Source: an uncultured Elusimicrobiaceae bacterium (lineage in GTDB: Bacteria; Elusimicrobiota; Elusimicrobia; Elusimicrobiales; UBA9959). From it: a stretch of DNA of 56,649 bases. The position numbers were made by a program, and so were the translations under genes. The stretch spans positions 1 through 56,649 of the forward strand of contig CAZUQT010000002.1 in NCBI GenBank assembly GCA_964622585.1, in the 5' to 3' direction. The notes under the pieces are model-generated. The model was given only the letters and a program-made list of their open reading frames with translations. It was not told the DNA's origin and did no database searches. Shown in pieces: positions 40,498 to 56,083 of this stretch; the first letter of the stretch is position 1; every line of letters begins with the position of its first letter.

Positions 40498-40521
40498 TGC
40501 CGCGTCTTTCGAGCGCCGCCT

Positions 40522-40713
40522 TTATTTCGGCCGGGGAATGACTGCCGACCAGAGCTCTGTAGGAAAAGTGTTTGTGTCGGCCGGCTCCGAGCCGCGCTGA
40601 TAGAGCAGCGAGCCCAGCAGGCAGGCCAGGATCCCGCCGAAGACGGCAGCCGCCAAAGCGATAAAGAACGAGCGCCGAACCCTGAAACCTCCTTTCTTTC
40701 TTTTCCAGGGCAT
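40522..40713 (-). CDS. possible small membrane protein
   Basis: Its ATG directly abuts the stop of the upstream hydrolase gene. Basic N-terminus plus one TM helix (FFIALAAAVFGGILACLLGSLL). Weak support only. Confidence 0.35.
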   Translation of the reverse strand: MPWKRKKGGFRVRRSFFIALAAAVFGGILACLLGSLLYQRGSEPADTNTFPTELWSAVIPRPK

Positions 40714-41430
40714 TTATTTGTCACCCAGCCAGTTAAAGATCGCCGGGATTATCGAAGGAGTTTTTAACATGTTCACGCCGTGCCCGGTGGCGGCTTCGAG
40801 CGAGTAGGCCGACAGGCCCCTCTCCATGGCCGCCCGGTTAAGCTTCAGCACGCTTTCCCAGGCGTAGACGTCATTGCGCGCCGCCACGCTCAGGATCTGG
40901 AAATCCCTGGGCGCCGAAAAATAGCTTTCCGTCTTTACCCCCGCGTATTCTATCCCCGGCGAAAGAAGGACCACCGCCGCCGGCTTTATAGCCCCGGTGG
41001 CGGCCGCTTTAAGGGCGAGGTTGGCGCCGACGCTCGCGCCGCAGTAGACCATCTTTTCCGGCGACAGCCCCCGCTTTTTAAGCCAGGCCGCCGCCGCCTC
41101 GATGTCCAGGGAAACTTTGTTCCAGTCCTCTTCCGAAAAGAACATATATTTCGTCTCTTTGCCTTTGCAGGTCCTGCTTTTCCCGTGGCCGCGCAGGTCC
41201 AGGGAGAGGTAGCCGTAGCCCGCGCTTTTAAGCTTTTCCTGGAAAAGGCCCCATTCGTTCTTGTCCGAGCCCAGCCCGTGCGCGTTTATAAAAATATACG
41301 AGCCCGAGGACGGCGCCAGGTAAAAAGCTTCCAGCCGGCACCCGTCGGGCGTATTGAAGCGCACCGTCCTCTGCTGGGAAAAAGCGGGCCCGCAGGCGAA
41401 GAGCAGAGCGGCAAGAAATAAATAGCGCAT
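40714..41430 (-). CDS. secreted alpha/beta hydrolase
   Basis: Signal peptide MRYLFLAALLFACGPAFS from the ATG at 41430 (alternative ATG at 41469). HG oxyanion region INAHGLGSD and nucleophile elbow GASVG. Confidence 0.78.
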   Translation of the reverse strand: MRYLFLAALLFACGPAFSQQRTVRFNTPDGCRLEAFYLAPSSGSYIFINAHGLGSDKNEWGLFQEKLKSAGYGYLSLDLRGHGKSRTCKGKETKYMFFSEEDWNKVSLDIEAAAAWLKKRGLSPEKMVYCGASVGANLALKAAATGAIKPAAVVLLSPGIEYAGVKTESYFSAPRDFQILSVAARNDVYAWESVLKLNRAAMERGLSAYSLEAATGHGVNMLKTPSIIPAIFNWLGDK

Positions 41431-41459
41431 AAAATTATTTAACTCCCGGGGCGGCGCTC

Positions 41460-42758
41460 TCAAGAGCATTCCTTTCGGTCCTGGTTCTCCGCTTCGGCCG
41501 GTTCCCCGCCGAAAGAAAGCACGAGATTCATCATCACCGCGAGCACGGTTCCGAAAGCTATGCCGGCGATGTTCACGCCGCCGGCCGTAAAGCCTTTTAC
41601 GCCGAGGCCGGTGGAAATGATTATGGAGGAGCCCGCTATGATCAGGTTCTTATGCAGGCAGAAGTCCACTTTCGCGTCCATCCAGATCTTTATCCCCATT
41701 ATGGCGATAAGCCCGTAAAGGATGACGGTGACCCCGCCCAGCACCGGGGCGGGCACGGACTGGATGACCGCGCCGAACTTTGGGCAGAGCCCGAGAAGCA
41801 GCGCGATGCAGGCCGCGGCGATGAAGTTATAGATGCTGAAAACGCGGGTGATGGCCATCACGCCCATGTTCTCGGCGTAGGTGGTCTGCGGCGTGCCCCC
41901 GCCCATGGCCGAGACGAAGGTGGCCGCGGCGTCCCCCAGGTAGGCGCGCCCGAGATGCGGGTTGAGGTCGCGCTTCATATAGCCGGAGATGGCCTCTATA
42001 TGGCCTTTATTTTCAGCCACCAGCACCACGAAGACCGGCGCTATCACCAGTACGGCCTCGAAGCTGAACGCCGGCGCTATGAAAGGCGGCAGACCTATCC
42101 AGGGGGCGCTCCTTATCGCGGCCAGGCTGGCCAGGTCTATTATGCCGAGGAAAAAAGAGAGGGCGTACCCTACGACCACGCCGGTAAGTATCGGCAGGAG
42201 GCGCAGGAAACCTTTAAGATAGATAGAGACCGAGGCCGCGGTCACGAAAGTGGCGCCGGCCACCAGCAGCCTGCGCGCGTCGTCGTTCGTGGCCAGGCGG
42301 AAGTCCTCGTTGAGGAAATTCGAGACGGCCGAGGAGGAAAGGTTCAGGCCGATCAGGGCCACGACGGCGCCCGTTACTACCGGCGGCATCAGGCGGTCTA
42401 TCCACTTCGAGCCGTATTTCACGGTGGCCGCGCCTGCCAGGGCGTAAAGGACGGCGGCGCCGGCGATACCCGACAGCGCGTAGGGGATATTTTCTGACAG
42501 GCCGCCGGTCACGGCGAGCACCGGCCCTATAAAAGCGAAGGAGGACCCCAGGTAGCTCGGAACCTTGGCGCGCGTAATGGCGATAAAGAGCAGCGTGCCC
42601 GCTCCGGAAAAGAAAATGGCCGTCTGGGGATTGAAGCCCATCAAAATTGGGGCCAGCACCGTCGCCCCGAACATGGCCACCACGTGCTGCATCCCCATGG
42701 GCACCAGCCGCGAAAGCGGCAGCTTGTCTTCAGGATAATATATTTTATGCATGGTCAC
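41460..42758 (-). CDS. uracil/xanthine permease (NCS2 family)
   Basis: GMQHVVAMFGATVLAPILMG and the ...TTYAENMGVMAITRV signature region; about 12 TM helices. Confidence 0.9.
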   Translation of the reverse strand: MTMHKIYYPEDKLPLSRLVPMGMQHVVAMFGATVLAPILMGFNPQTAIFFSGAGTLLFIAITRAKVPSYLGSSFAFIGPVLAVTGGLSENIPYALSGIAGAAVLYALAGAATVKYGSKWIDRLMPPVVTGAVVALIGLNLSSSAVSNFLNEDFRLATNDDARRLLVAGATFVTAASVSIYLKGFLRLLPILTGVVVGYALSFFLGIIDLASLAAIRSAPWIGLPPFIAPAFSFEAVLVIAPVFVVLVAENKGHIEAISGYMKRDLNPHLGRAYLGDAAATFVSAMGGGTPQTTYAENMGVMAITRVFSIYNFIAAACIALLLGLCPKFGAVIQSVPAPVLGGVTVILYGLIAIMGIKIWMDAKVDFCLHKNLIIAGSSIIISTGLGVKGFTAGGVNIAGIAFGTVLAVMMNLVLSFGGEPAEAENQDRKECS

Positions 42759-42908
42759 CCCTAAGGTAATAATATTATTAATGGCGGTGAAGGTAAAGAG
42801 GGGGTTGACCAGGCGCTTAAAGTTATTTAACTTGTGCTTAAAGGGGCGCTTTCATCCGCTGAAAGCGCGCAGCCCTCTTAAAATATAAGCCGCCGGCCAG
42901 GGGGAATT

Positions 42909-43703
42909 ATGAGAAAGCGTTCCTGCTTCGTGAAGAGCGTTTTTTGCGCGGCGTTCTGCGCCGCCCTGCTGGCGCCGGCGGCGCGCGGCGAGGACTGGAA
43001 ATTCAGCTCCTCTTTCAATTTCGACACTGGCAAGTACGGCGGCGGCGACCGGATAGATTCCGTCTATATTCCCTTCACCCTGAAACGCTATTACACGGAG
43101 GGAGACATCGCCGTGACCGTGCCTTACCTGCGCCAGAGCTCGACGGGGCAGGTGACCCGCGTCGGGGGCAGCCCTATGCGCGCGGTCAGGGGTGGCGGCG
43201 GCGTCCTGACCTCCTCCGAGTCCGGCCCCGGGGACATCCTGGTGAGGGGAACCTATATCGTGCAGAACGAGGGGCCGCGCTCCTGCGACCTCTCGCTGGC
43301 GGGAACGCTGAAGCTGCCGACCGCGAACAAGAACAAAGGGCTCGGCACCGGGGAGCTGGACGAGGGGGTCGGGGTAGAGTTCGCGAAAAAAGTGTCGCCC
43401 GGCTGGACGGTGCTGGCCGACGGGTATTACACCATAATCGGAGATACCTCCGGGATCGACTTTAACAACCAGCTCTCTTTCGACGCGGGCTTTTCCCGCC
43501 GGCTGCGGGAGGACCTCTGGCTGACCGCGCTTTACGCTACGCGCAGCGCACTGCTGGACGGGAACGCCGACCCGAGGGAGCTAAGCGGCACGCTGGACTA
43601 CCGGGCCGCGGACGGGAAACATTATTTCTGCGGCCTGCTTTTAGGGCTTTCCGACGGCAGCCCGGAGACGGGGTTCAGCGCCGGGTTCAGCCTGAAGTTT
43701 TAG
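42909..43703 (+). CDS. outer-membrane beta-barrel protein (MetA-pathway/transporter-like family)
   Basis: Signal peptide, alternating beta-strand pattern, GPGDILVRGTY and GTGELDEGVG segments, C-terminal ...FSLKF. Confidence 0.7.
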   Translation: MRKRSCFVKSVFCAAFCAALLAPAARGEDWKFSSSFNFDTGKYGGGDRIDSVYIPFTLKRYYTEGDIAVTVPYLRQSSTGQVTRVGGSPMRAVRGGGGVLTSSESGPGDILVRGTYIVQNEGPRSCDLSLAGTLKLPTANKNKGLGTGELDEGVGVEFAKKVSPGWTVLADGYYTIIGDTSGIDFNNQLSFDAGFSRRLREDLWLTALYATRSALLDGNADPRELSGTLDYRAADGKHYFCGLLLGLSDGSPETGFSAGFSLKF

Positions 43704-43728
43704 CGACTGAAAAAATAAAGGGGGGAAA

Positions 43729-44286
43729 ATGAAGAACAAAGAAATGCGGCTGCTGGCGGCGGGGCTTTTCCTTTGCGCGGTCATGCCGGTGCTGGCGCAG
43801 GAAAAATCGTCCGAAGATAAGAAACTGGAAAAAGCCTCGGTCGAACTTGACAACGAGGCCGGAAAGCCTGAAGGCGGAAAAACGGTGACGGACAAGCTGA
43901 AAGCGGAGTTCGGCGTGGACGAAGCGCGGATACAGGGCCTGCGCGACCAGAAACTGGGCTACGGGGAAGTCTCCACCGCTCTGTCGCTGGCCCAGGGCCT
44001 GCCGGGCGGCATCACCGACGCCAACGTGCAGAAAGTGATGGCGCTGCGCCAGGGACCCCCGGTCATGGGCTGGGGAAAAGTGGCTAAAGAGCTGGGGATG
44101 AACCTGGGCTCCGTTACGAGCAAGGTAAAAAAAGTCTCGGCCGAAGCCCGCAAACAGGGCAAAGCCGACAAGATGAAGAAAGTAGAAAAAGGCGAGAGAC
44201 CGGGAAAGCCCGAACGCCATGAAAAACCGGAAAAAATGAACCGGCCCGAAAAAGGCGGGCGCCCCGAAGGCGCGGGGAAGCATTAA
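43729..44286 (+). CDS. secreted Lys/Glu-rich hypothetical protein
   Basis: GGGGGGAAA SD sequence, signal peptide and a KPEK-type repeat tail. Followed by a strong terminator. Confidence 0.6.
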   Translation: MKNKEMRLLAAGLFLCAVMPVLAQEKSSEDKKLEKASVELDNEAGKPEGGKTVTDKLKAEFGVDEARIQGLRDQKLGYGEVSTALSLAQGLPGGITDANVQKVMALRQGPPVMGWGKVAKELGMNLGSVTSKVKKVSAEARKQGKADKMKKVEKGERPGKPERHEKPEKMNRPEKGGRPEGAGKH

Positions 44287-44302
44287 AAGAACCGGCAAGA
44301 GA

Positions 44303-44330
44303 GGCGCGGCCGGGTGGCCGCGCCCTTTTT
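44303..44330 (+). terminator. rho-independent terminator
   Basis: GGCGCGGCC-GGGT-GGCCGCGCC followed by CTTTTT. Confidence 0.78.
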
Positions 44331-44367
44331 CCGGCCGCCGGACCCGGGATAACCGGGGGATAGCGGT

Positions 44368-44661
44368 TTATTTTTTGAAATAATGCTTAAGGGTGAGCAG
44401 CGGGTGGCGCAGCGGCATGCGGGGGCCGGCGTATTTCATGACTTCACGCATGAGCTCGCGCTTCGCCGGAAGATAGCAGTGCGTGGGGCAGTTCTTGCAG
44501 GCTGGCTTCGGGTGATGGGGGCATTTCGCTAGCCTGACCTCCGCGTAGGAAAGGAGTTCCGCGCAGCCGGCGCAAAGGGTTTTCCCGCCGTGCTTTCCGC
44601 GGCAGTAAATAGCCAGCATCAGCCCGATGGTTCGTAATTCCGCTTCAAGGTCTTTTCCCAC
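44368..44661 (-). CDS. nitrous-oxide-stimulated promoter (YgbA_NO) family Cys-rich protein
   Basis: CRGKHGG..LCAGC...CPHHPKPACKNCPTHCY cysteine pattern. GTG start. Confidence 0.75.
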   Translation of the reverse strand: MGKDLEAELRTIGLMLAIYCRGKHGGKTLCAGCAELLSYAEVRLAKCPHHPKPACKNCPTHCYLPAKRELMREVMKYAGPRMPLRHPLLTLKHYFKK

Positions 44662-44695
44662 TCAAATATTATACGTAATAAAAGCCGGAGCCCTT

Positions 44696-44731
44696 TTGAC
44701 TCGGCGGGCGGCATATCCTAGAATCTAGCTA
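44696..44731 (+). promoter_or_regulatory. promoter/operator cassette copy A: TTGACT-N17-TAGAAT-N6-ATG (PilZ), with the embedded palindrome CTAGAATCTAG at 44718-44728
   Basis: Read directly. 25 of 26 nt (CATATCCTAGAATCTAGCTATGGA region) are shared with copy C. Confidence 0.6.
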
Positions 44732-45051
44732 TGGAAGGAAAAGATAAAAGACAGGCTGAAAGGAACAACCACGATTCGGTCATAGAGCTCTTCGACGAGA
44801 AGGGAAAATTCTTCGCTTCCGGCAGGCTGGCCGATTTTTCCGACCTTGGCGCTTCTTTTTCTATCGCCGAGCCGGTAGTGCTGCCGGCAAAGTTCCGCGC
44901 GCGCCTCAGGCTGCTGAGCAAGGGCGTGCTCGAGGCCGAAGCCCAGGTGGTCAGGACCCGCAAAGAAAAGAACACCACCCACTACGCCGTAAAATTTAAC
45001 GGCGTTAAAAGGGTCCATCCCACCGGCGAGCTCAAAGACACCTGGCAGTAA
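44731..45051 (+). CDS. PilZ domain protein (putative c-di-GMP receptor)
   Basis: 106 aa with a basic N-terminal stretch (KRQAERNNHD) and a DxSxxG-type motif (DFSDLGASF). Confidence 0.7.
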   Translation: MEGKDKRQAERNNHDSVIELFDEKGKFFASGRLADFSDLGASFSIAEPVVLPAKFRARLRLLSKGVLEAEAQVVRTRKEKNTTHYAVKFNGVKRVHPTGELKDTWQ

Positions 45052-45091
45052 ACCGGCCCCGCCGGGCAGAGGCTGGACGGCCGCGGATCCT

Positions 45092-46141
45092 ATGCCGAAA
45101 CAAAGCCTTAAAAAACAACTTTTTATTTACGCGCCGATAGCTCTCTCGCTCGGTATACTCGCCGTTTTGGTCTATCCCAATCTGGAAGCGCTGCTTGCCG
45201 CCGTAAAGACCGCAAAACCTTTCTACCTGTTCTGCTCCCTCTTCTTTTCCTTCGCCGGCTATCTGTTCATGGGCCTGGCCCTCTGGGAAGTTCTCAAGAT
45301 CCTCGGCCACCGCCTGCCTTTCTGGGAGGCTTCGGGCATCGTTTTCGTTTCCACCACGGTGAACTATTTCGTCTCCTCGGCCGGGGTGAGCGGTTTCGCC
45401 ACCAGGGCGCATTTGCTGAGCAAGCGCAATGTCCCCTACGGGATAAGCGTGACCTCCTCGGTGGTCATCAGCGTCTTCATCTACCTGGTTCTGGCCGCGA
45501 TAATACTTGAAGGGATGCTGCTGCAGATGCTCCTTTCCAGCAGCTACGGGATAAACGTTTTCGAGGGCGTAGCCGGCGTCCTTTTCGTTCTCACTTTCGC
45601 TTTCGTTCTGGTCATGCTCTTCTTCAGTCATGAACTCAGGACGGCCTGGGCCCGGAGGCTTTACCACCTGGTGAACCACCTGATGTACTTCTTCTCTAAG
45701 AAAACGATACCCGAGGAGACCTTTCTGCAGTTTGAAACCCAGCTGGCCGGCGGGATACATACGATACAGGCCCGGAGGTACGAGCTGCCGCTGGTCCTGG
45801 GCTATATCTGCCTGGACTGGGTGAGCAATATCCTCATCCTCCATTACGCTTTCAGGTCCGTGGACGCGCATATGCACACGAGCACGCTTATCATAGGCTT
45901 CGCTTTGGGCCAGCTAATGACGATAATCCCGATCCTGCCCGGCGGCCTGGGCGCGATGGAGGCCGCGATGACCGCGGCTTTCTCCGGCATGGGCATCCCG
46001 GTCGGGAAGGCACTCGCGGCGAGCCTTATCTTCAGGCTTTTCTATTACATTATCCCGGCCCTGGCCAGCGTCTTCGTCTACTGGTACCTGCGCGTCTCCG
46101 AACCGCGTTATGCCAGGCGCAAAGAAGATCCCCTCCCTTAG
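45092..46141 (+). CDS. flippase-like / lysylphosphatidylglycerol-synthase-TM (UPF0104) family membrane protein
   Basis: About 8 TM helices with the C-terminal IPILPGGLGAMEAAM motif typical of this family. Confidence 0.78.
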   Translation: MPKQSLKKQLFIYAPIALSLGILAVLVYPNLEALLAAVKTAKPFYLFCSLFFSFAGYLFMGLALWEVLKILGHRLPFWEASGIVFVSTTVNYFVSSAGVSGFATRAHLLSKRNVPYGISVTSSVVISVFIYLVLAAIILEGMLLQMLLSSSYGINVFEGVAGVLFVLTFAFVLVMLFFSHELRTAWARRLYHLVNHLMYFFSKKTIPEETFLQFETQLAGGIHTIQARRYELPLVLGYICLDWVSNILILHYAFRSVDAHMHTSTLIIGFALGQLMTIIPILPGGLGAMEAAMTAAFSGMGIPVGKALAASLIFRLFYYIIPALASVFVYWYLRVSEPRYARRKEDPLP

Positions 46142-46162
46142 AAGCCTTTTCCGCCTCCTCCT

Positions 46163-46255
46163 CCCTTTACTGCTGACCAGGCATATCCTAGAATCTGGCT
46201 ATGGACAAAGGTATCTCGGCCCGGGAGATACCGCTCAAGGGAGTGGCCCTCCTCG
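46163..46255 (+). repeat. left direct repeat bracketing the accessory block
   Basis: By eye about 80% identical to 53391-53457 plus 53519-53546. Confidence 0.65.
46166..46201 (+). promoter_or_regulatory. promoter/operator cassette copy B: TTTACT-N17-TAGAAT-N6-ATG (relic micro-ORF)
   Basis: Same geometry. The palindrome is degenerate (CTAGAATCTGG, 46188-46198). Confidence 0.5.
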
Positions 46256-46263
46256 GTAAATAA
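46201..46263 (+). pseudogene. 20-codon relic of the 5' end of the nucleotidyltransferase gene found intact at 53429
   Basis: MDKGISAREIPLKGVALLGK* aligns with MDKAIAAREI[20 aa]IPLKGAALLELG of 53429..54277 (61-nt internal deletion). It is preceded by the same promoter cassette. Confidence 0.6.
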
Positions 46264-46353
46264 AGAGTGCTGCGCCCGGCTGTTGCGGGCGTGTCACACG
46301 GAGGGGCTTTGCTTGCCTGGATGCCGACAGTGGTGGGATCAATGGCGGTTTGT

Positions 46354-47250
46354 TCAGTCCCTGGGAAGGGCCTTAAATATGCTGGTATCAATGTAATAGA
46401 TGGCCGAGTCTTGCCTGCTTTCCTCATCAGTAGTGCTATATACGCAGGCCAGTCGCACTGCTTTTTCCAGGTGTTGGCGGTATAGATCCAGGTTGGCTTT
46501 CGTCATACGGACGGTCATCCTCTTGGCAGCAACGGGTTTGGAACCTGCCAACCACGTCTTCCAGAGATCGCGTAATGTGTCCCGGATCCCCGTCGTCTCC
46601 GGTATCATCGGCATTTTACTAATCACTTTGCCCGCAAACTGGCTGCGTGCCTTGTCCCCTGAAAGATCGATCAAACCCCCGGAAGCCAGTGCTTTGAGCG
46701 CTTTCCTTATTGCCTCAGGTTTAAACCTGGTCGCATTCGACAATTCCCGGACCGTGACCCAGCCCGCCGTGTTGGCCAGGAAGTTCTGACAGATGTGCGT
46801 CACCAGATCTCTGGAGCGCAATTTCCATTGCGCCATTGTCATGTTGATGCTGCGTTGCGAGAGCGCCTGATGGGTAGCCGCTTCAGCCAGTTCTCTGCTG
46901 GGAAGATCCGCATCGGCAGAGGCCGGCGCTGACAGGGTCTGAAGCAGTTCATCTGAGCCTGAGAGCGCCCTGAAATAGGCCCGGACAAGTTCCTGCGCCT
47001 TCGGTGAATGCTTTTCAATGCCCAGCGCGGCAATGATCGCCTTAAGACGCCAACTCTTCGGCAATTTCTTGCCGCGCTCCATATCATAGTAACTCACGAA
47101 GGCAAGCCCCAGGCTTTTGCTCCCGCCGATACTCTTGAAGAATTGGTACGCACCGGAGTAACCCTGCTCTTTCCTGATCCTGGCTAAGGTGCTGCCGAAT
47201 GTTTTGGCGTTAGTCATATTCCGAAAAGTATAACATATCGGTTTAGCCAT
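46354..47250 (-). CDS. XRE-type HTH transcriptional regulator with a ~200-aa C-terminal domain containing a second winged-helix-like segment
   Basis: FGSTLARIRKEQGYSGAYQFFKSIGGSKS...SYYDMERGKKLP is an XRE HTH. The later VTVRELSNATRFKPEAIRKALKALASGGLI looks winged-helix-like. The ATG lies in the centre of a 19-bp palindrome. Confidence 0.7.
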   Translation of the reverse strand: MAKPICYTFRNMTNAKTFGSTLARIRKEQGYSGAYQFFKSIGGSKSLGLAFVSYYDMERGKKLPKSWRLKAIIAALGIEKHSPKAQELVRAYFRALSGSDELLQTLSAPASADADLPSRELAEAATHQALSQRSINMTMAQWKLRSRDLVTHICQNFLANTAGWVTVRELSNATRFKPEAIRKALKALASGGLIDLSGDKARSQFAGKVISKMPMIPETTGIRDTLRDLWKTWLAGSKPVAAKRMTVRMTKANLDLYRQHLEKAVRLACVYSTTDEESRQDSAIYYIDTSIFKALPRD

Positions 47251-47259
47251 AGGCTAAAC
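47241..47259. promoter_or_regulatory. 19-bp perfect palindrome GTTTAGCC-ATA-GGCTAAAC (candidate operator) spanning the XRE gene start codon
   Basis: The arms are exact reverse complements. The CAT of the minus-strand start is at 47248-47250. Confidence 0.55.
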
Positions 47260-47428
47260 TAAAGGCTTTTATATTTAGTCGCCGCTCCTGAATCAAAAGA
47301 CCGGGCCGCTCTGGTTCTTCCGCCTCATGGAATTCATCGGCAGACAGAGTAAACTTATCTCATGAGGTTTTGGAGCAGCACGGTAGCTACATCCGGCACC
47401 AATCAAATAGGGAGAATAATTAAGTATG
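47241..47428 (+). repeat. duplicated regulatory leader, copy 1 (upstream of the FGE-fold gene)
   Basis: By eye roughly three-quarters identical to 48853..49040, with no net indel. Confidence 0.75.
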
Positions 47429-48319
47429 AAAAGATTAGCCTACGCAACAGTAGTAGTATTATTCGGTCTTAACGTTTCATATGCCACGGAGACCGCTCTT
47501 GATTCATTAAGAGCCTCTGTTTCTCCCCCGGTTTTAGGCGGAACAGTTCTGCCGGATATTTCCAAGGGTTACGTCTTAGAGGACGATCTGTCTGCCGGCG
47601 CTCCGGCCACACCGCTAGAATGGATTGCCATCGGCGGGGGGGCTTTAACGATGGGAACCGATGATGACTCCGGTATTTTTGACGATGCCAGGCCGATCCA
47701 TAAAGTAGCCATTAAAACCTTTGAGATGTCCAAGACAGCGGTGACGGTGGAGCAATACGCGGAGTGCGTGATAAAAGGCAAGTGCACGGAGCCAGGCGAC
47801 GTCAAGTATTGCAACTGGGGGAAGGAGGGGCGGCAGCTTCACCCGGTTAACTGCGTGGACTGGGAGCAGGCGAACCAATACGCCAGGTTTAAGGGCGCAA
47901 GACTGCCCAGCGAGTCCGAGTGGGAATACGCGGCGAAAAGCGGCGGCAAGAATCAGAAATATCCATGGGGCAACGAGGAAGCGACCTGTGACAGGGCTGT
48001 AATGCACGGTAATGACGGTGACGGTTGCGGCGCTTATGGCACGATGCCAGTATGTTCAAAACCGGCTGGGAACACCGCGCAGGGTTTGTGCGATATGTCC
48101 GGAAACGTATGGCAGTGGGTCCAGGACAATTACCAGGATTCGTATAACGGCGCGCCTGCGGACGGCAGCGCGTTCAAAAACACGAGCTCCGACCGGGTGC
48201 TGCGCGGCGGCTCCTTCTTCAACAGCGGTGTCAGATACCTGCGGGCCGATTACCGCAACGAGTTCGGTTTTGGCGACCGTTATTCTGAGATCGGGTTCCG
48301 CCTTGCGAGGTCCCGTTAA
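47426..48319 (+). CDS. secreted FGE-sulfatase (SUMF1) fold protein lacking the catalytic cysteines
   Basis: Signal peptide, HKVAIKTFEMSKTAVTVEQY, PVNCVDWEQANQYARFKGARLPSESEWEYAA, GNVWQWVQD, RVLRGGSF...IGFRLARS. There is no Cys in the RGGSFFNSGVRYLRADYR segment, where true FGEs carry two. Confidence 0.88.
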   Translation: MKRLAYATVVVLFGLNVSYATETALDSLRASVSPPVLGGTVLPDISKGYVLEDDLSAGAPATPLEWIAIGGGALTMGTDDDSGIFDDARPIHKVAIKTFEMSKTAVTVEQYAECVIKGKCTEPGDVKYCNWGKEGRQLHPVNCVDWEQANQYARFKGARLPSESEWEYAAKSGGKNQKYPWGNEEATCDRAVMHGNDGDGCGAYGTMPVCSKPAGNTAQGLCDMSGNVWQWVQDNYQDSYNGAPADGSAFKNTSSDRVLRGGSFFNSGVRYLRADYRNEFGFGDRYSEIGFRLARSR

Positions 48320-48421
48320 TGCATGGAGGCTGAAGCCACCGTCAGTTTACGGGTATCCCGTAACGGCAGAGGCGGACCCTGTAAGCGAGTCTCCGGCATA
48401 GACGCGGGTTCTGCGGGTCGT

Positions 48422-48805
48422 TTGAGATCTCATAAGAAAACAGGGGGCATTATAAAAATACTGCTGGTCGAAGATAATGAACTGACGCGGCACGTTCTAA
48501 AGTCCATGCTGATAAAGCTCGGGCATGAAATCGTGGGCGAAGCCGGGGATGGAGATAAAGCGGTCCGGTATTTTACCCGGTCAAAGCCGGACGTGGTTTT
48601 CCTGGACCTTCTCCTGCCCGGAAAATCCGGCATAGAAGTATTGGCGGCCATCCGGCACGTGGATCCAGCAACGCGGGTAGTGATCATAACGGCTGTTGAG
48701 CAGGAAGAGATAAACCGCCAACTTTCTGGCAAGGGCATTCACGCCGTATTGCGCAAACCTTTTTCCTTTGGGGATTTTAAGACACTGATGAGGAATTTGA
48801 CCTGA
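48422..48805 (+). CDS. single-domain response regulator (CheY-like receiver)
   Basis: ILLVEDNE acidic pocket, VVFLDLLLPG phospho-acceptor Asp, IITAV, LRKPF. The start is uncertain: the ORF track begins at 48323, but the receiver fold only starts at about 48455, and 48347-48363 is a perfect hairpin. Confidence 0.75.
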   Translation: MRSHKKTGGIIKILLVEDNELTRHVLKSMLIKLGHEIVGEAGDGDKAVRYFTRSKPDVVFLDLLLPGKSGIEVLAAIRHVDPATRVVIITAVEQEEINRQLSGKGIHAVLRKPFSFGDFKTLMRNLT

Positions 48806-48852
48806 AGCGCCTGTCCGGCACGGGAACAGCGAGGGAAAAACATAATACATCA

Positions 48853-48871
48853 GTTTAGCTATTGGCTAAAC
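48853..48871. promoter_or_regulatory. second copy of the operator-like palindrome (GTTTAGCT-ATT-GGCTAAAC)
   Basis: 7 of 8 arm positions pair. It sits exactly 185 nt before the protease ATG, as copy 1 sits 185 nt before the FGE-fold ATG. Confidence 0.5.
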
Positions 48872-49040
48872 TTAACGAGTTTTTATTTAGCCGCTGCTCC
48901 TGAATCAAAAGACCGGAGCGTTCTGGTTCTTCAGCCTCAGGGAGCTCAGCGGTAAACGAGGTAAACTTAAATCATGAGGTTTCGGAACTGCGTGATAAGC
49001 CGCATCCGGGCCCATAAGTAGGAGAGGTAAACATAATATG
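48853..49040 (+). repeat. duplicated regulatory leader, copy 2 (upstream of the S1 protease gene)
   Basis: See copy 1. Confidence 0.75.
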
Positions 49041-50257
49041 AAAAACCAAATATTCGCGCTATTAAGCCTGGTTATCGCCGCCGGCGCCGGCCCGGCCCAG
49101 GCCGGCGACCCGGTCACGGACCTGCGCGGCAATTGCGGAGATTTTACCCGCGTTTCCACGTATGGCGACGACAACCGGGAAGAATACTGCTCCCGGAACA
49201 TACTACTGCGCGACCTGGCCGATTCTACAGCCGGCCTGTTCACCGACGGCAGCAGCGTTACCCTGAACAATAAGGATTATGTTTTTGACACCGAGACGCT
49301 CGGAGCAAGCCAAGCCTTGGCTCCGGACCAGCGGTTCGCCGACCAGCCGGTGGCGGCTTTCTGCACCGGCTTCCTTGTGGGCGAGGACCTGCTGGTTACC
49401 GCCGGCCATTGCGTTAAAGACCAGCACCCAGGCACCGCCGCTCCCAAGGACCACCCCGGGGCCTGCCTGGAAAACCTCCAATCGGGGGTAGTCTGCGGGA
49501 ACATAAGGGTGGTTTTCGGCTTCAGAAAGGACCTGGGAGGTGTTATCCCCGGGTCAGTACCCGCCGGCAATGTCTACAAGTGCATCGGGGTGGTGGCGCA
49601 CAGCCGTAAAAGCGGCCCCGACTATGCCCTGGTGAGGCTGGACCGGAAGGTTTCCGGCCCGCGCCCGCTGGCTATAAACAGGAACAACTCCGGTCTTTCG
49701 CAAAAAACTCCCTTGTTAGTCATAGGGCACCCGACTGGAATACCCCTTAAAATCGCCGGCGACGCGACGGTCATTTCCTCCGGCACGGACGTCTATGTCA
49801 ATTATCCGGGGGCAGTGAAAAATGGGTAGACAAGGGGTATGCCTTCCTAACTAACCTGGACACCTTCCAGGGCAATTCCGGCAGCCCCGTGTTCAACCTT
49901 AACACGCTGCTGGTTGAAGGCATACTTGTGAGCGGGGACAACGACTACGAGCCCCACCCCGAATATCCCGGCCAGGCTCAGGTCACGAATTACCCCCAGG
50001 CTACCAGCGCGGATCTAGGCAAAGGGGTAGGCGAAGTCTGCACCAAGATCTCGGTGCCTGCGGCCAAGATCCCTGTTACCGACCGCGAGGCGGCCATGCT
50101 GGAAATGAACAGAAAGGCCAAGAACAGGCTTTATCCTGTTATGCTGGAGAGGCTGTACCGGAGGGCCGGTGAGCAACTGCGGCTGCAGCCGCAGGCTATA
50201 CCAATACCGGACTATATAGTCCCGGCCAAACCCAAACCGGACGTGCAGTGGATATAA
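49038..50257 (+). pseudogene. secreted trypsin-like (S1 family) serine protease interrupted by a 1-nt frameshift
   Basis: His in LLVTAGHCV and Asp in DYALVRLD (ORF 49038..49829). The Ser motif DTFQGNSGSPVF lies in the -1 frame upstream of ORF 49889..50257. The frames join at the G5 run 49808-49812. Confidence 0.8.
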
Positions 50258-50325
50258 GGCCGTCCTTTGCTTAACCCCGCCTGCCCGGTGAACGAACAGT
50301 TTTGGCGGAAGTTTAAGGATAAATT

Positions 50326-51075
50326 ATGAAAATTATAATACCGATCTTTATGTTAATTGCTCCGTTTTTGTCGAACTGCATGGTTATCGCGGCCGAGGCC
50401 CCGTCTACCGCAAGTTTCACGGACCTGGAGAATTCTCTGCCGGGAAACTTCGGTACGAACGCTTCCGGCCCGGGAATTCCGGAGTGCGCAAAGCCTGCAG
50501 CTGTTAAAGCGGTTTCGGAAAGCGATAACCGCCGGCTTACGGAAGGCGAACGTGAGATGCTTGAAAAGATCTTCGTAAATGGCGTGAGATATGACGAGGT
50601 TCGTGTATACCACCGCAAATGGACGCTTTTTCAGCCGGAGACCAGAGTAATGTCCCCTGACGGTAACATTTATTACCCGCCTGCTGACCTCAAGGACCCC
50701 TCGGGGAATCTATATTATTCAGAGGATTTCAGCAAAACCGTCGGTTTGGTAAAGCTTGTCTTCATCCATGAAATGGGGCATGTCTATCAATATCATCAGG
50801 GCATAGACGTTATGTCTAGAAGGCTTGGGGAGGGCGGGGTCTATAGGTATAAAATAGAAGCCAACAAGGACCTGAACGACTACACGCTGGAACAGCAAGC
50901 CGAGATAATTAAAGATTATTATCTCTGTCTGGCTGAAAGGAATCTGCTTGAAAGAAGTTGGAACAATGCGCATTGCGTAATTAAATTTACACCGGCGCTC
51001 GATAATTTTGACGAAAATCCGGATTATCTCAGGAAAGCCGAACTAAAGCGCCGGCGCCAGGTGAACCCGTTCTGA
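50326..51075 (+). CDS. secreted HExxH zinc-metallopeptidase-like protein
   Basis: Signal peptide and an FIHEMGHVYQYHQG (HExxH) motif at 50767-50781. From memory, the surrounding pattern (LTEGEREMLEKIF...YDEVRVY...MSPDGNIYYP...EQQAEIIKDYY) resembles small proteins often annotated 'Vgr-related'. Confidence 0.65.
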   Translation: MKIIIPIFMLIAPFLSNCMVIAAEAPSTASFTDLENSLPGNFGTNASGPGIPECAKPAAVKAVSESDNRRLTEGEREMLEKIFVNGVRYDEVRVYHRKWTLFQPETRVMSPDGNIYYPPADLKDPSGNLYYSEDFSKTVGLVKLVFIHEMGHVYQYHQGIDVMSRRLGEGGVYRYKIEANKDLNDYTLEQQAEIIKDYYLCLAERNLLERSWNNAHCVIKFTPALDNFDENPDYLRKAELKRRRQVNPF

Positions 51076-51130
51076 TTTTAACGGATAAGGAATAGCTGTG
51101 GGTAATTTGGGAGAAAAGGGGGATATCTAT

Positions 51131-52339
51131 ATGAACAAGACATTGAGCGGAACATTTATCTCGGCAGCTATTTTATGTGCGCTTCAGCTCCCGGCTGCTG
51201 CTAGTCCCGGCACGCGGGATAAATTCAAGGGCAGAGCCAATGGTACCGAGTTTATCGCCGATTGTGAGAGATATCCCACTCTTAAAGTGTCCCGTTATGG
51301 ATTCGAGTGTGAAATGACTTATCTTGTTAAGCCGTACGGCGCGGATAAACAAATGGAAATCAAGAAGCTTGTTTTTTTCCCTTCTACTGGCCTGGAGAAA
51401 AGATACGCAGACTCCTCCAGCAAAAAGGACAGGGATGCTTTCGAAGCGGATCGCTTGAAACGGATCCAGAAAGTGGTGGCCGTTGACATTAACTACCAAA
51501 GAGATGTTGTCTCTAAAAAAAGCATTTACGATCCTCCAGAACACAAGAGGAAGATTGCCTTGGACCCAGGGCTTGAATCCGTGGATGTTTTAGCCAAAGC
51601 CGACGCCAGGGCCAAGGCCATGGTTAAAGAAAATAACAGTCCGGAAAACAGGAAAACGGCCGAAAGCGTTAAATTCTATCTCGAGAAAGCACGAAAAAGG
51701 GAGAAGGAGAATAGTAAGGCCGCCTGCATTGCTTTCTATACGGCTTATACGGTCGCGGAATCCGCTTACGTTTCCGTGGATGCGGACGCATATTGGGAGG
51801 AAAGAAAAAACGTACTGCATGCCGCTAACGAGATCATGGGGCTTGTTCCATTGCTTGGTCTCCCCGCTGCTGCTAATACTTGCAAAAACGCCCATTCGTT
51901 CGTGAATTATATCTGCTGCGGGTTTGGTATTGCCGGGAACCTTCCAATGCTCAAAGGAGCTAAACTAGTTGAGGAAATTCATGGTGAAGCCATCTGCGCC
52001 GGGTCTGCGGTTCTTGGGGGTTTTAACGCGAGGGCTAACCGTGAAGAAAAGAAGACCCGGTTTGTCCAAGAGGCCGCGAATGCGCTTAATCAGGTGAACG
52101 TGTGCGTTAAAAAAAAGGTTTCGTCTTTTGAGGAGATCCGGAGTGCTGGTGAGGCAAACCTTCGAAAAAGGACGGGCGGTTCCCCGCAGGAGCCCTGCGA
52201 TGAGCGTGTTCCCTATCCGTTTCGGGCGATCAAATGCGAGGGCTCCAAGTGCGAAGCCCTGTGGAGCTGCGGTCCGGAAAATATTAACAGAAGCTATCGT
52301 ACCTTCAATGCTGACGTAAACTCACTGCGAAAAAGATGA
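51131..52339 (+). CDS. secreted Cys-rich hypothetical protein
   Basis: AAGGGGG SD sequence before the ATG at 51131. Signal peptide MNKTLSGTFISAAILCALQLPAAASP and many Cys residues (CERYP, CEMTY, NTCKN, ICCG, CEGSKCEALWSC). No family recognised. Confidence 0.6.
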   Translation: MNKTLSGTFISAAILCALQLPAAASPGTRDKFKGRANGTEFIADCERYPTLKVSRYGFECEMTYLVKPYGADKQMEIKKLVFFPSTGLEKRYADSSSKKDRDAFEADRLKRIQKVVAVDINYQRDVVSKKSIYDPPEHKRKIALDPGLESVDVLAKADARAKAMVKENNSPENRKTAESVKFYLEKARKREKENSKAACIAFYTAYTVAESAYVSVDADAYWEERKNVLHAANEIMGLVPLLGLPAAANTCKNAHSFVNYICCGFGIAGNLPMLKGAKLVEEIHGEAICAGSAVLGGFNARANREEKKTRFVQEAANALNQVNVCVKKKVSSFEEIRSAGEANLRKRTGGSPQEPCDERVPYPFRAIKCEGSKCEALWSCGPENINRSYRTFNADVNSLRKR

Positions 52340-52440
52340 AGAGAGGGTCCCCTGGCCGGAGTAAGTCTTTAAAAAAGTTACTGCCCCCGCGGCAGGCCGC
52401 CTGAACGCGTACAAGCTTTCTATTGGATGCTTATGGGAGC

Positions 52441-53322
52441 TTACTTGGGAGCGCTGAGTCTTTTCTGGATCTCCAGGCGGAGTTCCAGGATGACGTTCAC
52501 GTAGTTTTTGGAATGATTGTAGCCGTACAGGGCTTTCCAGGGGCCGGAGTTTTCGGCGAAGCCGGGGGAGGAGAAATAATCGTGCTTGACCAGGTAGTTG
52601 GAGATGCTGGCCAGCGCGTCCGGCCAGATAAAGAGGTCGGGGTAGGCGTCGCCGTCGAAATCGGCGGCGTAAGCGTTATAGGAGGACGGCATGAACTGGC
52701 CCAGCCCGAAAGCGCCCGCATAGGAGCCGAGCAGGGCGAACGGGTCTTTCTTCCTGGCATAGGAAAGCTTTAAGAGTTCCGCGATCTCTTTGGACGCCCA
52801 GGCCGAGCGCCGGGGGATCCTTTCGGCGATGGTGTTCAAGGCGTTGAAAACGATATATTTGCCGCGGTTCTCGCCATAGTTGCTCTCCACTCCGACGAGC
52901 CCGGCAAGAAGGAAAGTGTCTACGCCGTACTTCTGATTAACGGCCGCCAGAATATCCTTGTTAGCGGCATAGAACTGCGCCCCGCCGGCTATCCTTTTCT
53001 CGGTCAGGAGGAGCTTCCTGTATTGCTCGTAGGTCAGGCTCTCGGCCGGTTTGTTCATCGCCGTCACTATCTCTTCATGGATCTTCACGCGCGGGTCCGC
53101 GAAAGCCGCTTTCGCATAGCTTTCCGGCACGCCCGAACCTTTGAGCGCGGCGAGAACGGCCTGGTAAACGTCGGCGGGGACGGCCTGGGCTTTATCAGCG
53201 GAAACCTGGGACCTGTCGAAGGAGGAAAAAATGTCTCCCGCCGTCAATTCTTCCGCCCTGGCGGCGGAAGCGGCGGCCGCCAGAAGGATAAGCGGCAGAA
53301 ATGTTTTAAATATGATCTTCAC
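52441..53322 (-). CDS. mltB: lytic murein transglycosylase (MltB/SLT_2 type)
   Basis: Signal peptide, GLVGVESNYG catalytic Glu context, AGAFGLGQFMPSSY and GYNHSKNYV. Confidence 0.82.
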   Translation of the reverse strand: MKIIFKTFLPLILLAAAASAARAEELTAGDIFSSFDRSQVSADKAQAVPADVYQAVLAALKGSGVPESYAKAAFADPRVKIHEEIVTAMNKPAESLTYEQYRKLLLTEKRIAGGAQFYAANKDILAAVNQKYGVDTFLLAGLVGVESNYGENRGKYIVFNALNTIAERIPRRSAWASKEIAELLKLSYARKKDPFALLGSYAGAFGLGQFMPSSYNAYAADFDGDAYPDLFIWPDALASISNYLVKHDYFSSPGFAENSGPWKALYGYNHSKNYVNVILELRLEIQKRLSAPK

Positions 53323-53390
53323 ATCTATAGTGTAGCCCGCGGACGCAAGTTCCCCAAGGGCCGAAAGTCCTACTTCCTCTTTGCCAACCG

Positions 53391-53546
53391 CCCTTTACTG
53401 CACACCTGCCATATCCTAGAATCTAGTTATGGACAAAGCGATCGCGGCAAGGGAGATCCTGCTTCTTGGGGCTTTCGACGAGGCCAGGGCTGTCGCGCTT
53501 AAAGCCGGCATCGAGATAATACCGCTGAAAGGCGCCGCCCTCCTCG
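53391..53546 (+). repeat. right direct repeat (intact promoter and 5' end of the nucleotidyltransferase gene)
   Basis: See the left repeat. It contains 61 nt (53458-53518) that are missing from the left copy. Confidence 0.65.
53394..53429 (+). promoter_or_regulatory. promoter/operator cassette copy C: TTTACT-N17-TAGAAT-N6-ATG (nucleotidyltransferase), palindrome CTAGAATCTAG at 53416-53426
   Basis: Read directly. Confidence 0.6.
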
Positions 53547-54277
53547 AGCTCGGCATCTACAAGGTCGGCGAACGCGGGATGAGCGACGCCGACGTCCTGT
53601 TGCGTCCGAAGGACCTTCCGCGCTTCGAAAAGATACTCCACGGGCTCCGCTACCAGCCGATGCCGAACAGCGCCGACGGCTGGCTGCGGCCGAGCCGGAA
53701 CGACGCGCCGCCGGCCATTCTCGACCTGCATACCGGCCTTTGGCACATAAAGCGCACCGAGGAACTCTTTAACTGGGGCCTCGAACCGGGTCCCGGCGGG
53801 CTCGCTCTGAACCTGGCCGACCTCTTCCTGCACGCCGCCGCCCACCCGCTTCTGCACCACGGGGAGGTTACGCCCCGCTCCCTGGAAGACTGCGCCCGCA
53901 TCGCCCTGCACGCGCCCGGGGACGGAGAGAAATTCTGGGCCGCCGTGGCCCGCAAAACTGAAATTTATAATATGCGCCCGGTGATCTGGCCGGTCATAGA
54001 GAGGCTGGCCGCCGGCCCGTTGGCGATCCCGGAGGCTGAACTGCGGGCCCTGGAGCCGCGCGGCCTGGAAAAAATAAAAGCGGCTTTCTTCGAGAAAGCC
54101 GCCAAAAAACATTCTACCTTGCTGGAATATCTGCTGCCGGTGCTGCACCGCCCCGGCTTCCTGCTGAAATACGCCGTCCCCGAAAAACATTTCATGCTGC
54201 GCCGCTACGGCGCCGCAAGCCTGGCCCTCTACCTTCTGCGCCCGCTAAAGCTGCTCCGCTCCGCCCTGAGGCGCTAG
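53429..54277 (+). CDS. uncharacterised nucleotidyltransferase family (NTP_transf_5-like) protein
   Basis: IPLKGAALLELGIYKVGERGMSDADVLLRPKDLPRF matches the family's N-terminal pattern (LKG..L......R...D.D.L). No SD sequence; the start lies 6 nt after TAGAAT. Confidence 0.7.
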   Translation: MDKAIAAREILLLGAFDEARAVALKAGIEIIPLKGAALLELGIYKVGERGMSDADVLLRPKDLPRFEKILHGLRYQPMPNSADGWLRPSRNDAPPAILDLHTGLWHIKRTEELFNWGLEPGPGGLALNLADLFLHAAAHPLLHHGEVTPRSLEDCARIALHAPGDGEKFWAAVARKTEIYNMRPVIWPVIERLAAGPLAIPEAELRALEPRGLEKIKAAFFEKAAKKHSTLLEYLLPVLHRPGFLLKYAVPEKHFMLRRYGAASLALYLLRPLKLLRSALRR

Positions 54278-54655
54278 CCCGCGCACCAGGGTGTACATCT
54301 TCAGCATATTGGCCAGCCGCTCGAGGCCGGGGGGCTTTATCACAAAATCGAAAGCGCCTTCCTTGACGGCCTTGGCCGCCATATCGACATTGTCCAGGCC
54401 GGTAATGAGGATAACGCAGGCGTCCTTGTTCGTCTCCCGCGCTTTAAAGGAAAATTCGAGGCCGCTGGCCCCGCGCAGGTAAATATCGGAGATCACTACG
54501 TCGAAAGGTTTTTCAGCCAGGAGCGCGCGGGCTTTTTCCGCGTCGTCCAGGCGGGTAACTTCAAATTGGGGAAAAGCGGCCAGGATCTCGTTGACGCGGG
54601 CTATGACGTAGCCCTCTTCCTCGAGAAGCAGGAGCTGTTTCTTCTCCATCACCAT
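54245..54655 (-). CDS. single-domain response regulator
   Basis: LLLEEEGYV, VVISDIYLRG phospho-acceptor Asp, ILITG, IKPP. Its start overlaps the HD-GYP stop (ATGGTGATG; the starts at 54655 and 54649 are both possible). Confidence 0.82.
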   Translation of the reverse strand: MVMEKKQLLLLEEEGYVIARVNEILAAFPQFEVTRLDDAEKARALLAEKPFDVVISDIYLRGASGLEFSFKARETNKDACVILITGLDNVDMAAKAVKEGAFDFVIKPPGLERLANMLKMYTLVRGLAPQGGAEQL

Positions 54656-55965: not shown

Positions 55966-56083
55966 ATAAAAATTGTAGCAGATGAAGATTAAGGAAAGAT
56001 TGCGGAAAGATTAACCTGAATCCTGCAAGGATTCCGCGCGAAGGGGCGGAAAGTTGCCGCTGCAACTTTCAGGCTAACTGCGC

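Follow-up and report, generated by a model that had tools for sequence, protein, structure and literature searches.

A putative operator-promoter module repeated upstream of genes for signal-peptide proteins in Elusimicrobia

In a 56,649-nt stretch of contig CAZUQT010000002.1 from an uncultured Elusimicrobiaceae bacterium (hereafter the window, to whose positions all coordinates refer), a palindrome and the sequence following it occur twice, each time in front of a gene for a predicted secreted protein. An earlier note on this DNA had interpreted the duplicated region as the operator of a divergently encoded XRE-type regulator combined with a conserved leader RNA. Comparison of the two copies with their homologs indicates that they are probably copies of a lineage-specific 141-bp DNA operator-promoter module, which is reused in front of dozens of genes for signal-peptide proteins. 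The part of the interpretation in which an XRE-type regulator acts on its own gene and on both modules via a shared operator is supported, whereas the conserved structured leader RNA, be it a riboswitch or another structured cis-regulatory leader, is not. As judged from the same comparison, the duplication is real and represents one member pair of a large element family.

The duplicated element and its family

The inverted repeats were located at 47241-47259 (GTTTAGCCATAGGCTAAAC) and 48853-48871 (GTTTAGCTATTGGCTAAAC), the positions given for them before, with a motif count of 2 versus 0.21 expected by chance. The 21-mer GCTCCTGAATCAAAAGACCGG also occurred twice, compared with 0.01 occurrences expected by chance. 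Positions 47223-47379 and 48835-48991 could be aligned without gaps at 80% identity across 157 nt, which agrees with the earlier description of roughly three-quarters identical, indel-free copies, and the similarity of the copies continues upstream of the palindrome. The repeat of copy 1 had been described as a perfect 19-bp palindrome, but it consists of 8-bp arms and a 3-bp spacer (positions 9 and 11 are both A), and that of copy 2 of 7-bp arms and a 5-bp spacer. Both inverted repeats begin exactly 185 nt before an ATG (47426 and 49038). This identical spacing holds for both copies, but it is a property of the window pair and not of the family, because the distance between the end of the element and the ATG varies among the family members (median 53 nt, 10th-90th percentile 30-74 nt).

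A total of 25 genomic and 37 metagenomic loci around homologs of the regulator were gathered, and a profile was built from the two copies of the window. The search for further homologous copies with the nhmmer profile, which had been proposed as a check, was productive: 130 unique copies of the 141-bp element were identified, all in metagenome-assembled genomes (MAGs) of Elusimicrobia, and 113 of them are nearly full length. Copy 1 and copy 2 matched the family profile with E = 4e-37 and E = 5e-35, respectively. A degenerate pattern scan, which covered 185,579 species genomes, returned 50 stretches, of which 45 came from MAGs of Elusimicrobia, the highest count for a single MAG being ~26 matches; the 5 stretches from other phyla gave no match to the element profile. 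The first exact-pattern scan of the genomes resulted in one chance match in an Acetobacteraceae MAG; this pattern was too strict and the window's own genome lay outside the collection.

The mean pairwise identity of the family copies is 64%. The two 141-bp elements of the window share 82% identity, and their identity to the copy at locus L026 of another genome amounts to 81% and 78%, so that a recent simple duplication, which had been named as a possible explanation of the similarity, does not account for it. By these values the element is old and constrained. A divergent regulator gene adjoins 48 copies, and 69 copies have no such neighbor. Up to 5 copies are found per locus, positioned between consecutive unrelated genes on the same strand, and every copy faces a gene start with a Shine-Dalgarno sequence downstream. 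In a crude test, a signal peptide was predicted for 100 of the 107 downstream open reading frames (ORFs). The families encoded downstream are mutually unrelated (FGE-sulfatase, trypsin-like, YkuD, dual-specificity phosphatase, papain, polysaccharide deacetylase, alpha/beta hydrolase), and most of the downstream proteins are without a Pfam family match. The parts of the element in the window and the adjoining regulator gene are as follows.

47231-47371, plus strand: element copy 1, predicted 141-bp operator-promoter, delimited by the nhmmer profile and the family alignments
48843-48983, plus strand: element copy 2, without an adjoining regulator gene, in which a relic of the regulator promoter region is kept
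47241-47259, no strand assigned: operator inverted repeat of copy 1, GTTTAGCC-ATA-GGCTAAAC, T-type, covarying with regulator residue 41
48853-48871, no strand assigned: operator inverted repeat of copy 2, GTTTAGC-TATTG-GCTAAAC, T-type like copy 1
47273-47280, no strand assigned: putative third half-site of copy 1, ATTTAGTC, recognized by covariation of columns 14/26/46
48885-48892, no strand assigned: putative third half-site of copy 2, ATTTAGCC
47281-47300, no strand assigned: block B1, GCCGCTCCTGAATCAAAAGA, from the information-content profile
47311-47329, no strand assigned: conserved block B2, CTGGTTCTTCCGCCTCATG, from the information-content profile
47350-47355, plus strand: predicted effector -10 hexamer of copy 1, TAAACT, with the predicted start at A47362 preceded by C47361
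48962-48967, plus strand: predicted effector -10 hexamer of copy 2, TAAACT, with the predicted start at A48974 and a 64-nt 5' untranslated region (UTR)
47362-47425, plus strand: predicted 5' UTR of module 1, 64 nt, beginning with the conserved AUGAGGUUU and then variable, with a GGGAG Shine-Dalgarno sequence
46354-47217, minus strand: regulator gene, 287 aa, with a predicted N-terminal XRE-type helix-turn-helix (HTH), a winged HTH in the middle and a C-terminal domain of unknown function
47227-47235, minus strand: predicted regulator promoter, extended -10 TGtTATACT, 9 nt before the ATG

At locus L012 (5902-5990, MAG bin-2640), a regulator-adjacent copy lacks ~24 nt (columns 55-78, including CTCCTG) and precedes a gene for a 735-aa repeat-rich protein with no obvious signal peptide. 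This shortened copy may be a decayed or repurposed module.

The regulator and its predicted operator

More than 120 homologs of the regulator were identified, and every named source belongs to the Elusimicrobia. Most of these homologs, more than 100, have a length of ~286 aa and start with MT(N)xK. Because of this common beginning and length, and because a conserved -10 hexamer is positioned just upstream, the start of the regulator gene is placed at 47217 and not at 47250. The palindrome is situated 24 nt upstream of this start. The earlier statement that it is centered on the regulator start codon holds only for the longest ORF, which begins with the ATG at 47250. No Pfam or NCBIfam family matched the regulator above threshold, and only weak matches to LexA_DNA_bind and DUF4423 were obtained. 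In the AlphaFold2 model (pLDDT 78), the middle domain matches MarR-type winged-helix proteins, and in Foldseek searches the N-terminal domain matches C.BclI, C.AhdI, the XRE-family protein 5woq, ClgR and BldD with target-normalized TM-scores of 0.56-0.77 and probabilities of 0.97-1.0, though with weak E-values of ~0.07-0.5. The N-terminal domain is predicted to be XRE-like from this model. In the literature, which was searched for an Elusimicrobia motif and for DUF4423/TIGR02147, no description of the element or of the regulator family was found.

In 39 of 45 regulator genes a TAnnnT hexamer, in most cases TATACT and often behind TGn, precedes the ATG by 4-10 nt. The gap between hexamer and ATG is exactly 6 nt in 35 of the 45 genes and 9 nt in the window, and TG is found at -15/-14 in 20. 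Since the -10 hexamer is located so near to the ATG, the regulator mRNA looks leaderless or nearly leaderless. The nucleotidyltransferase gene at 53429 has the same geometry (TTTACT-17-TAGAAT-6-ATG), and this lineage evidently uses sigma-70-like -10 hexamers and leaderless starts, as far as promoter sequences can tell. The inverted repeat ends 8 nt upstream of the conserved TATACT, which means that the dyad overlaps the regulator's own promoter, where the repeat of copy 1 covers ~-39 to -21. A regulator bound there would be expected to repress its own transcription, because the operator covers its promoter.

The two arms of the dyad covary. In the alignment, 93.9% of the cells are paired, compared with 86.3% in shuffles, and none of 500 shuffles reached the observed value. 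At the dyad columns 14:26, the pair AU was counted 19 times versus 18 times for UA. A third half-site (columns 43-50) is a direct repeat of the left arm, from which it is 32 bp away, the distance to the right arm being 21 bp, and changes together with the left arm: columns 14/26/46 are A/T/A in 69 of 113 copies and T/A/T in 31 of 113. The operator type is constant within a locus and differs between paralogous loci of one genome (bin-2640, bin-1308). Mutual information between the regulator and its DNA placed residue 41 together with columns 26, 14 and 46 as the top 3 of ~41,000 protein-DNA column pairs. Among 39 regulator-operator pairs, methionine 41 is combined with the A-type operator in 20 (one of them with C in the left arm) and valine 41 with the T-type in 14 of 15, while S, T and G occur with other variants. 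Expressed as sequences, V is found with GTTTAGCC sites and M with GTTAAGCC sites. On a neighbor-joining tree of the regulators, residue 41 and the operator type switched ~7 times each independently. Residue 41 is part of the predicted recognition helix and precedes the ERG motif by six residues, a position which we take to correspond to the base-contacting Gln29 of the 434 repressor. Most likely, the regulator reads the half-sites via its XRE recognition helix. The dyad covariation, the third half-site and the tracking of the operator by residue 41 are all in line with the earlier proposal of a shared operator through which the XRE regulator would act on its own gene and on two modules.

A scanner flagged the palindrome as a minus-strand intrinsic terminator of the response-regulator gene. 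This assignment was rejected, because the palindrome shows covariation with the regulator and is no less conserved at places without a gene end in the vicinity.

Predicted promoters of the downstream genes and the supposed leader RNA

The promoter proposed before (GGCT-N16-TATTTA), which would overlap the palindrome, is not conserved. The sole universal TAnnnT hexamer is TAAACT, ~75 nt further downstream. In the alignment, TAnACT (columns 120-125; TA[A/G/T/C]ACT) is present in 113 of 113 copies as the only conserved TAnnnT hexamer of the element. In column 131, the sixth position past the hexamer, 91 of 100 copies carry a pyrimidine, and in column 132, the seventh, 97 of 98 carry a purine. The conservation of the family ends at column 141, ~10 nt past the predicted start. 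A -10-like hexamer followed by a pyrimidine/purine start near the 3' end of the conserved block implies that most of the supposed leader is probably untranscribed upstream DNA. This signature would put the start ~64 nt before the ATG, and the effector 5' UTR is predicted to be ~64 nt long, not ~140 nt as had been suggested. No TTGACA-like -35 element was detected 16-18 nt upstream of the -10 hexamer (mean best match 2.5/6 versus 2.3 at control anchors), nor is there a TG extended -10 on the effector strand, where T at -15 was found in 3 of 112 copies.

Upstream of the hexamer, sequence and length behave differently. In columns 71-80 and 100-117 the sequence varies freely, whereas the length does not. 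Of 106 copies, 93 have a distance of 42 nt from palindrome to CTCCTG, and of 110 copies, 91 have one of 65 nt from there to TAnACT, with almost all other copies deviating by no more than ±1 nt. Spacers of fixed length and free sequence have the look of protein-binding DNA with helical phasing, unlike unpaired RNA. The conserved parts between these spacers are B1, with the core CGCTCCTGRRTCAAA, in which CTCCTG is nearly invariant and followed by an A-tract, and B2 (CTGGTTCTTCGGCCTCAKG), which spans ~-51 to -33 relative to the predicted start, the place of a -35 element. Counted from the same start, the inverted repeat of copy 1 is centered at ~-112 and the third half-site at ~-86.

Three further candidates in this region were discarded. 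A sigma-54 promoter (GG-N10-GC) in CTGGTTCTTCGGCC was rejected by eye for its unsuitable spacing, and a leaderless upstream ORF beginning at ATGAGG was rejected as ATG is present in 18 of 119 copies and GTG in 14. The pair GAATTC/GAGCTC, to which the earlier note had drawn attention, is indeed present at the same aligned position of both copies, but its self-complementarity is coincidental: a self-complementary hexamer occurs there in only 8 of 113 copies, and the exchange was dismissed as a compensatory change.

The alternative, that the promoter overlaps the palindrome and that the conserved ~140 nt form a 5' leader RNA, either riboswitch-like or a platform for an RNA-binding protein, was weighed against these observations. 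The stretch from the operator to the ATG does contain conserved blocks, proteins could bind the RNA at AUGAGGUUU and at several motifs with GGA, and a start further upstream is compatible with the data, the predicted one being derived from sequence. The checks of folding, covariation and Rfam that the earlier note had named for such an RNA all turned out negative. With Rfam 15, the whole window gave no match at the gathering threshold and chance-level matches only at E up to 10. The two leaders of the window share no common fold (z = -0.10 and -0.55 versus shuffles), and RNAalifold with 40 copies predicted the 7-bp palindrome only. Mutual information over all column pairs of 44 copies contained one strong signal, columns 14/26/46, and no other complementary pairs; in the RNA-structure trials, the palindrome and the pairing of arm 2 with the third half-site stood out and nothing else. 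The two variable segments had mean folding z-scores of 0.18 and -0.01; the means were -0.48 for columns 44-142, -0.67 from column 52 to the ATG and -0.53 for the predicted UTR. The slightly negative means of -0.5 to -0.7 might speak for some structure, but the family range of 0.2 to -0.8 is far from the z-scores of structured RNAs. A short complementary pair, CCTCA/TGAGG, flanks the proposed -10 hexamer in many copies. The helix it would form was rejected, as column 98 does not covary with column 132 and a divergent subfamily is without TGAGG, yet keeps GCCTC and TAnACT. Moreover, there is no conserved TAnnnT hexamer near the palindrome; other copies have GATAAG, CATAAG or CCTAAG in the place of TATTTA, since this sequence is part of the third half-site, and the variable segments hold their length to ±1 nt like promoter spacers. 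Rfam-type riboswitches and structured leaders resemble the element in their site between promoter region and gene start and in their size of ~140 nt, but the element has no conserved structure, no covarying RNA pairs and no Rfam match, and is positioned mostly upstream of the predicted start. A leader RNA is therefore considered unlikely.

A second alternative assigns the effector promoters to a dedicated alternative sigma factor, with B2 as -35 and TAnACT as -10 element, and leaves to the XRE protein local repression or anti-repression only. B2 lies exactly at the place of a -35 element, is highly conserved and is unlike TTGACA; all paralogous loci have B1, B2 and the -10 hexamer in common but differ in their operators; and dozens of copies per genome suggest one global switch. 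However, no sigma-factor gene was seen in the island on which the regulator gene lies (described below), B2 is not known to match the consensus sequences of extracytoplasmic function (ECF) sigma factors, sigma-28, sigma-32 or sigma-54, and CTCAGG is separated from TAAACT by 20 nt, a long gap for a -35/-10 pair. As a full replacement for the operator-promoter module this is improbable, to a degree similar to that of the leader RNA, but it is compatible with that module and does not exclude it.

In the favored operator-promoter module, the order of the parts would be an 8-3-8 inverted repeat, a third half-site on the same helix face, B1, B2, the -35-less TAnACT and a pyrimidine/purine start 7 nt further on. 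At the effector promoters, the regulator would occupy sites at ~-112 and -86, with B1 and B2 filling the stretch to -33. As these promoters have no -35 element but carry B1 and B2 upstream, they probably depend on a factor bound upstream, for which the candidates are the regulator itself, binding via its second DNA-binding domain, a different common activator and a sigma factor dedicated to these promoters. Bound regulator, possibly with its winged HTH or a common factor on B1/B2, might then form a rigidly phased upstream complex that switches the promoters, for which activation is judged likelier than repression. Transcription would begin at 47362 and 48974 and yield mRNAs with ordinary 64-nt 5' UTRs devoid of structure. 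A more far-reaching version is doubtful, though conceivable: the element would be a portable, rigidly phased "enhancer plus -35-less promoter" cassette that defines a secretome regulon, comprising dozens of genes in each genome of an uncultivated clade of Elusimicrobia. This regulon would be served by paralogs of a new XRE/winged-HTH family that act in naturally orthogonal regulator-operator pairs, with one residue (V/M41) and one base pair (T/A) as the switch, and the regulator would wrap ~100 bp via the three half-sites, B1 and B2 and thereby activate the promoter.

Several points weigh against the operator-promoter module. A search for RNA sequencing runs that contain the window or three related loci listed none, and the assignment of the -10 hexamer and of the starts at 47362 and 48974 is drawn solely from conservation. 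GAGGTTT at +3 to +9 is strongly conserved and could act at the RNA level. The comparative data assign no factor to B1 or B2 and do not distinguish activation from repression of the effector genes, and for a simple activator it would be unusual to have its operator sites as far upstream as -112 and -86. On the side of the protein, Pfam HTH_3 does not match the regulator, so that its XRE assignment is that of a predicted fold, with Foldseek E-values of only ~0.07-0.2 despite a probability of 1.0. The correlation between residue and base is drawn from related sequences, and it has one exception among the V regulators (L005).

The island, its genes and related systems

The regulator gene and both modules are part of an island of which the main features are listed here.

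46115-52440, no strand assigned: island of ~6.3 kb with the regulator, both modules and three further genes
47426-48319, plus strand: module 1 gene, secreted protein with an FGE-sulfatase (SUMF1-like) domain and a signal peptide; Pfam PF03781, E = 9e-52
48446-48805, plus strand: CheY-like receiver, single-domain response regulator; Pfam PF00072, E = 5e-23, and NCBIfam
49038-50257, plus strand: module 2 gene, secreted trypsin-like serine protease, frameshifted; Pfam Trypsin_2 and Trypsin

In MAG STB_10 (L115), the flanks 40000-46114 and 52441-56649 are colinear at 92-94% nucleotide identity, and a 443-bp unrelated spacer replaces the island. No integrase, transposase or recombinase domain was found among the island ORFs.

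The absence of the island from a close relative also bears on a third alternative, in which the element is a site of recombination or mobility, be it integron attC-like, a MITE (miniature inverted-repeat transposable element) or a homology arm by which cassettes of secreted-protein genes are shuffled. Integron core and inverse-core sites follow the consensus GTTRRRY / RYYYAAC, and GTTAAGC and GCTTAAC fit it. The position of copies between consecutive unrelated genes, as described for the family, would suit such an origin, a role as passive homology for recombination stays compatible, and the pattern matches that of "promoter reuse" (PMC3575422). On the other hand, the T-type sites (GTTTAGC) violate GTTRRRY, the island encodes neither integrase nor transposase, and the copies are flanked by neither terminal inverted repeats nor target duplications. 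In all cases the element is oriented toward a gene start with -10 hexamer and Shine-Dalgarno sequence downstream, its half-sites covary with a residue of the neighboring DNA-binding protein, and the copies are old and diverged. A mobility site is thus regarded as very unlikely.

Promoter reuse, or putative mobile promoters, was described by Nijveen, Matus-Garcia and van Passel as homologous upstream regions in front of non-homologous genes, within and between genomes (PMC3575422). Those copies are highly similar and recent, whereas the element described here is old, with selected sites and spacing and a dedicated regulator family. The closest functional analog is the erp operator of Borrelia burgdorferi, a conserved region of ~145 bp 5' of the start, which precedes many loci for exported proteins, is needed for regulation and is bound by BpaB, encoded in many paralogous copies, and by other factors (PMC9112904). 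The two systems share a repeated region of about this length, loci for exported proteins and a paralogous DNA-binding protein, but no homology in sequence or protein. BpaB is ParB-like, compared with XRE plus winged HTH here, and the Borrelia loci are located on prophage plasmids. All BpaB proteins of the cp32 plasmids bind all erp operators, in contrast to the regulator-matched operator variants predicted in Elusimicrobia, and binding is demonstrated in Borrelia while it is inferred here.

XRE autoregulators, such as the 434- and lambda-type repressors and the C-proteins of restriction-modification (R-M) systems with their C-boxes, are alike in the predicted HTH fold, in the dyad over their own promoter and in a (nearly) leaderless mRNA. 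The regulator of the window differs from them by its 287 aa with an extra winged HTH and a C-terminal domain and by the lacking HTH_3 match, and its operator by three half-sites and by its position ~100 bp upstream of dozens of other promoters. The regulator does not belong to the R-M controller (C) proteins, which have ~80 aa; its neighbors are genes for secreted hydrolases, and neither R-M nor phage genes are present nearby. An operator and promoter for a transcription factor is a familiar kind of system, and its lineage-specific form is notable for its size, rigid spacing, copy number and specificity code.

The analysis removes a false riboswitch candidate and replaces it by a testable regulatory system in a phylum with almost no experimental genetics. 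It provides a previously unnamed regulator family for which there is no Pfam or NCBIfam model, a predicted operator, a one-residue/one-base specificity rule and promoter sequences that point to leaderless mRNAs in this clade. The promoter architecture marks secreted hydrolases (proteases, L,D-transpeptidase-like and FGE-type proteins, phosphatases, lipases), and the 141-bp profile can be used to list the regulon of secreted proteins in any MAG of the clade. The regulator-operator pairs are candidate orthogonal parts for synthetic biology.

Among the module genes, the protease gene is frameshifted near 49780-49900: the ORF 49038-49829 stops and the catalytic GNSGSP is encoded in another frame (ORF 49889-50257). 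This is based on a three-frame translation and on homologs, e.g., the full-length 339-aa protein in L003. The split is due either to a pseudogene or to an assembly error. A gene for a CheY-like receiver behind a module gene was found in three loci only (48446-48805 of the window, L004:7126-7482 and L070:3348-3704; 75% identical). Because close homologs are present in only two other loci, the receiver is no general part of the system, but for some modules it might provide a connection to a two-component signal. Among the island genes, none for a kinase was seen.

Some observations on the surroundings are added. A 76-nt direct repeat, 82% identical, is formed by 46160-46235 and 53388-53463. It comprises TTTACT-17-TAGAAT, a promoter of sigma-70-like type, and ~35 nt from the beginning of the NTP_transf_5 gene, which looks leaderless because its ATG is positioned 6 nt past the -10 hexamer. 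The left copy lies just inside the left border of the island and has no gene behind it. In more distant relatives (e.g., L126), blastn likewise gave no match to 45057-53426, a region that includes the LPG-synthase and SLT genes, so that an insertion hotspot may be situated upstream of the nucleotidyltransferase gene. The segment 50326-52339 contains two island genes without family match, one for a 249-aa signal-peptide protein with an HEMGH metalloprotease-like motif and one for a 413-aa protein. Its G+C content is ~46% versus 55-60% around it, and no 141-bp element is present in front of the two genes.

The proteins encoded downstream of the element (47426-47560 and 49038-49130 in the window, and ORFs of L002-L063) have a common N-terminal layout despite their unrelated catalytic domains. 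A signal peptide ending in ...G(G)AYA is followed by A(D/E)(F/L)xxL and, ~20 residues further on, by (V/I)P(A/E). This layout is covered by no Pfam family and could represent a common pro-region or a sorting tag.

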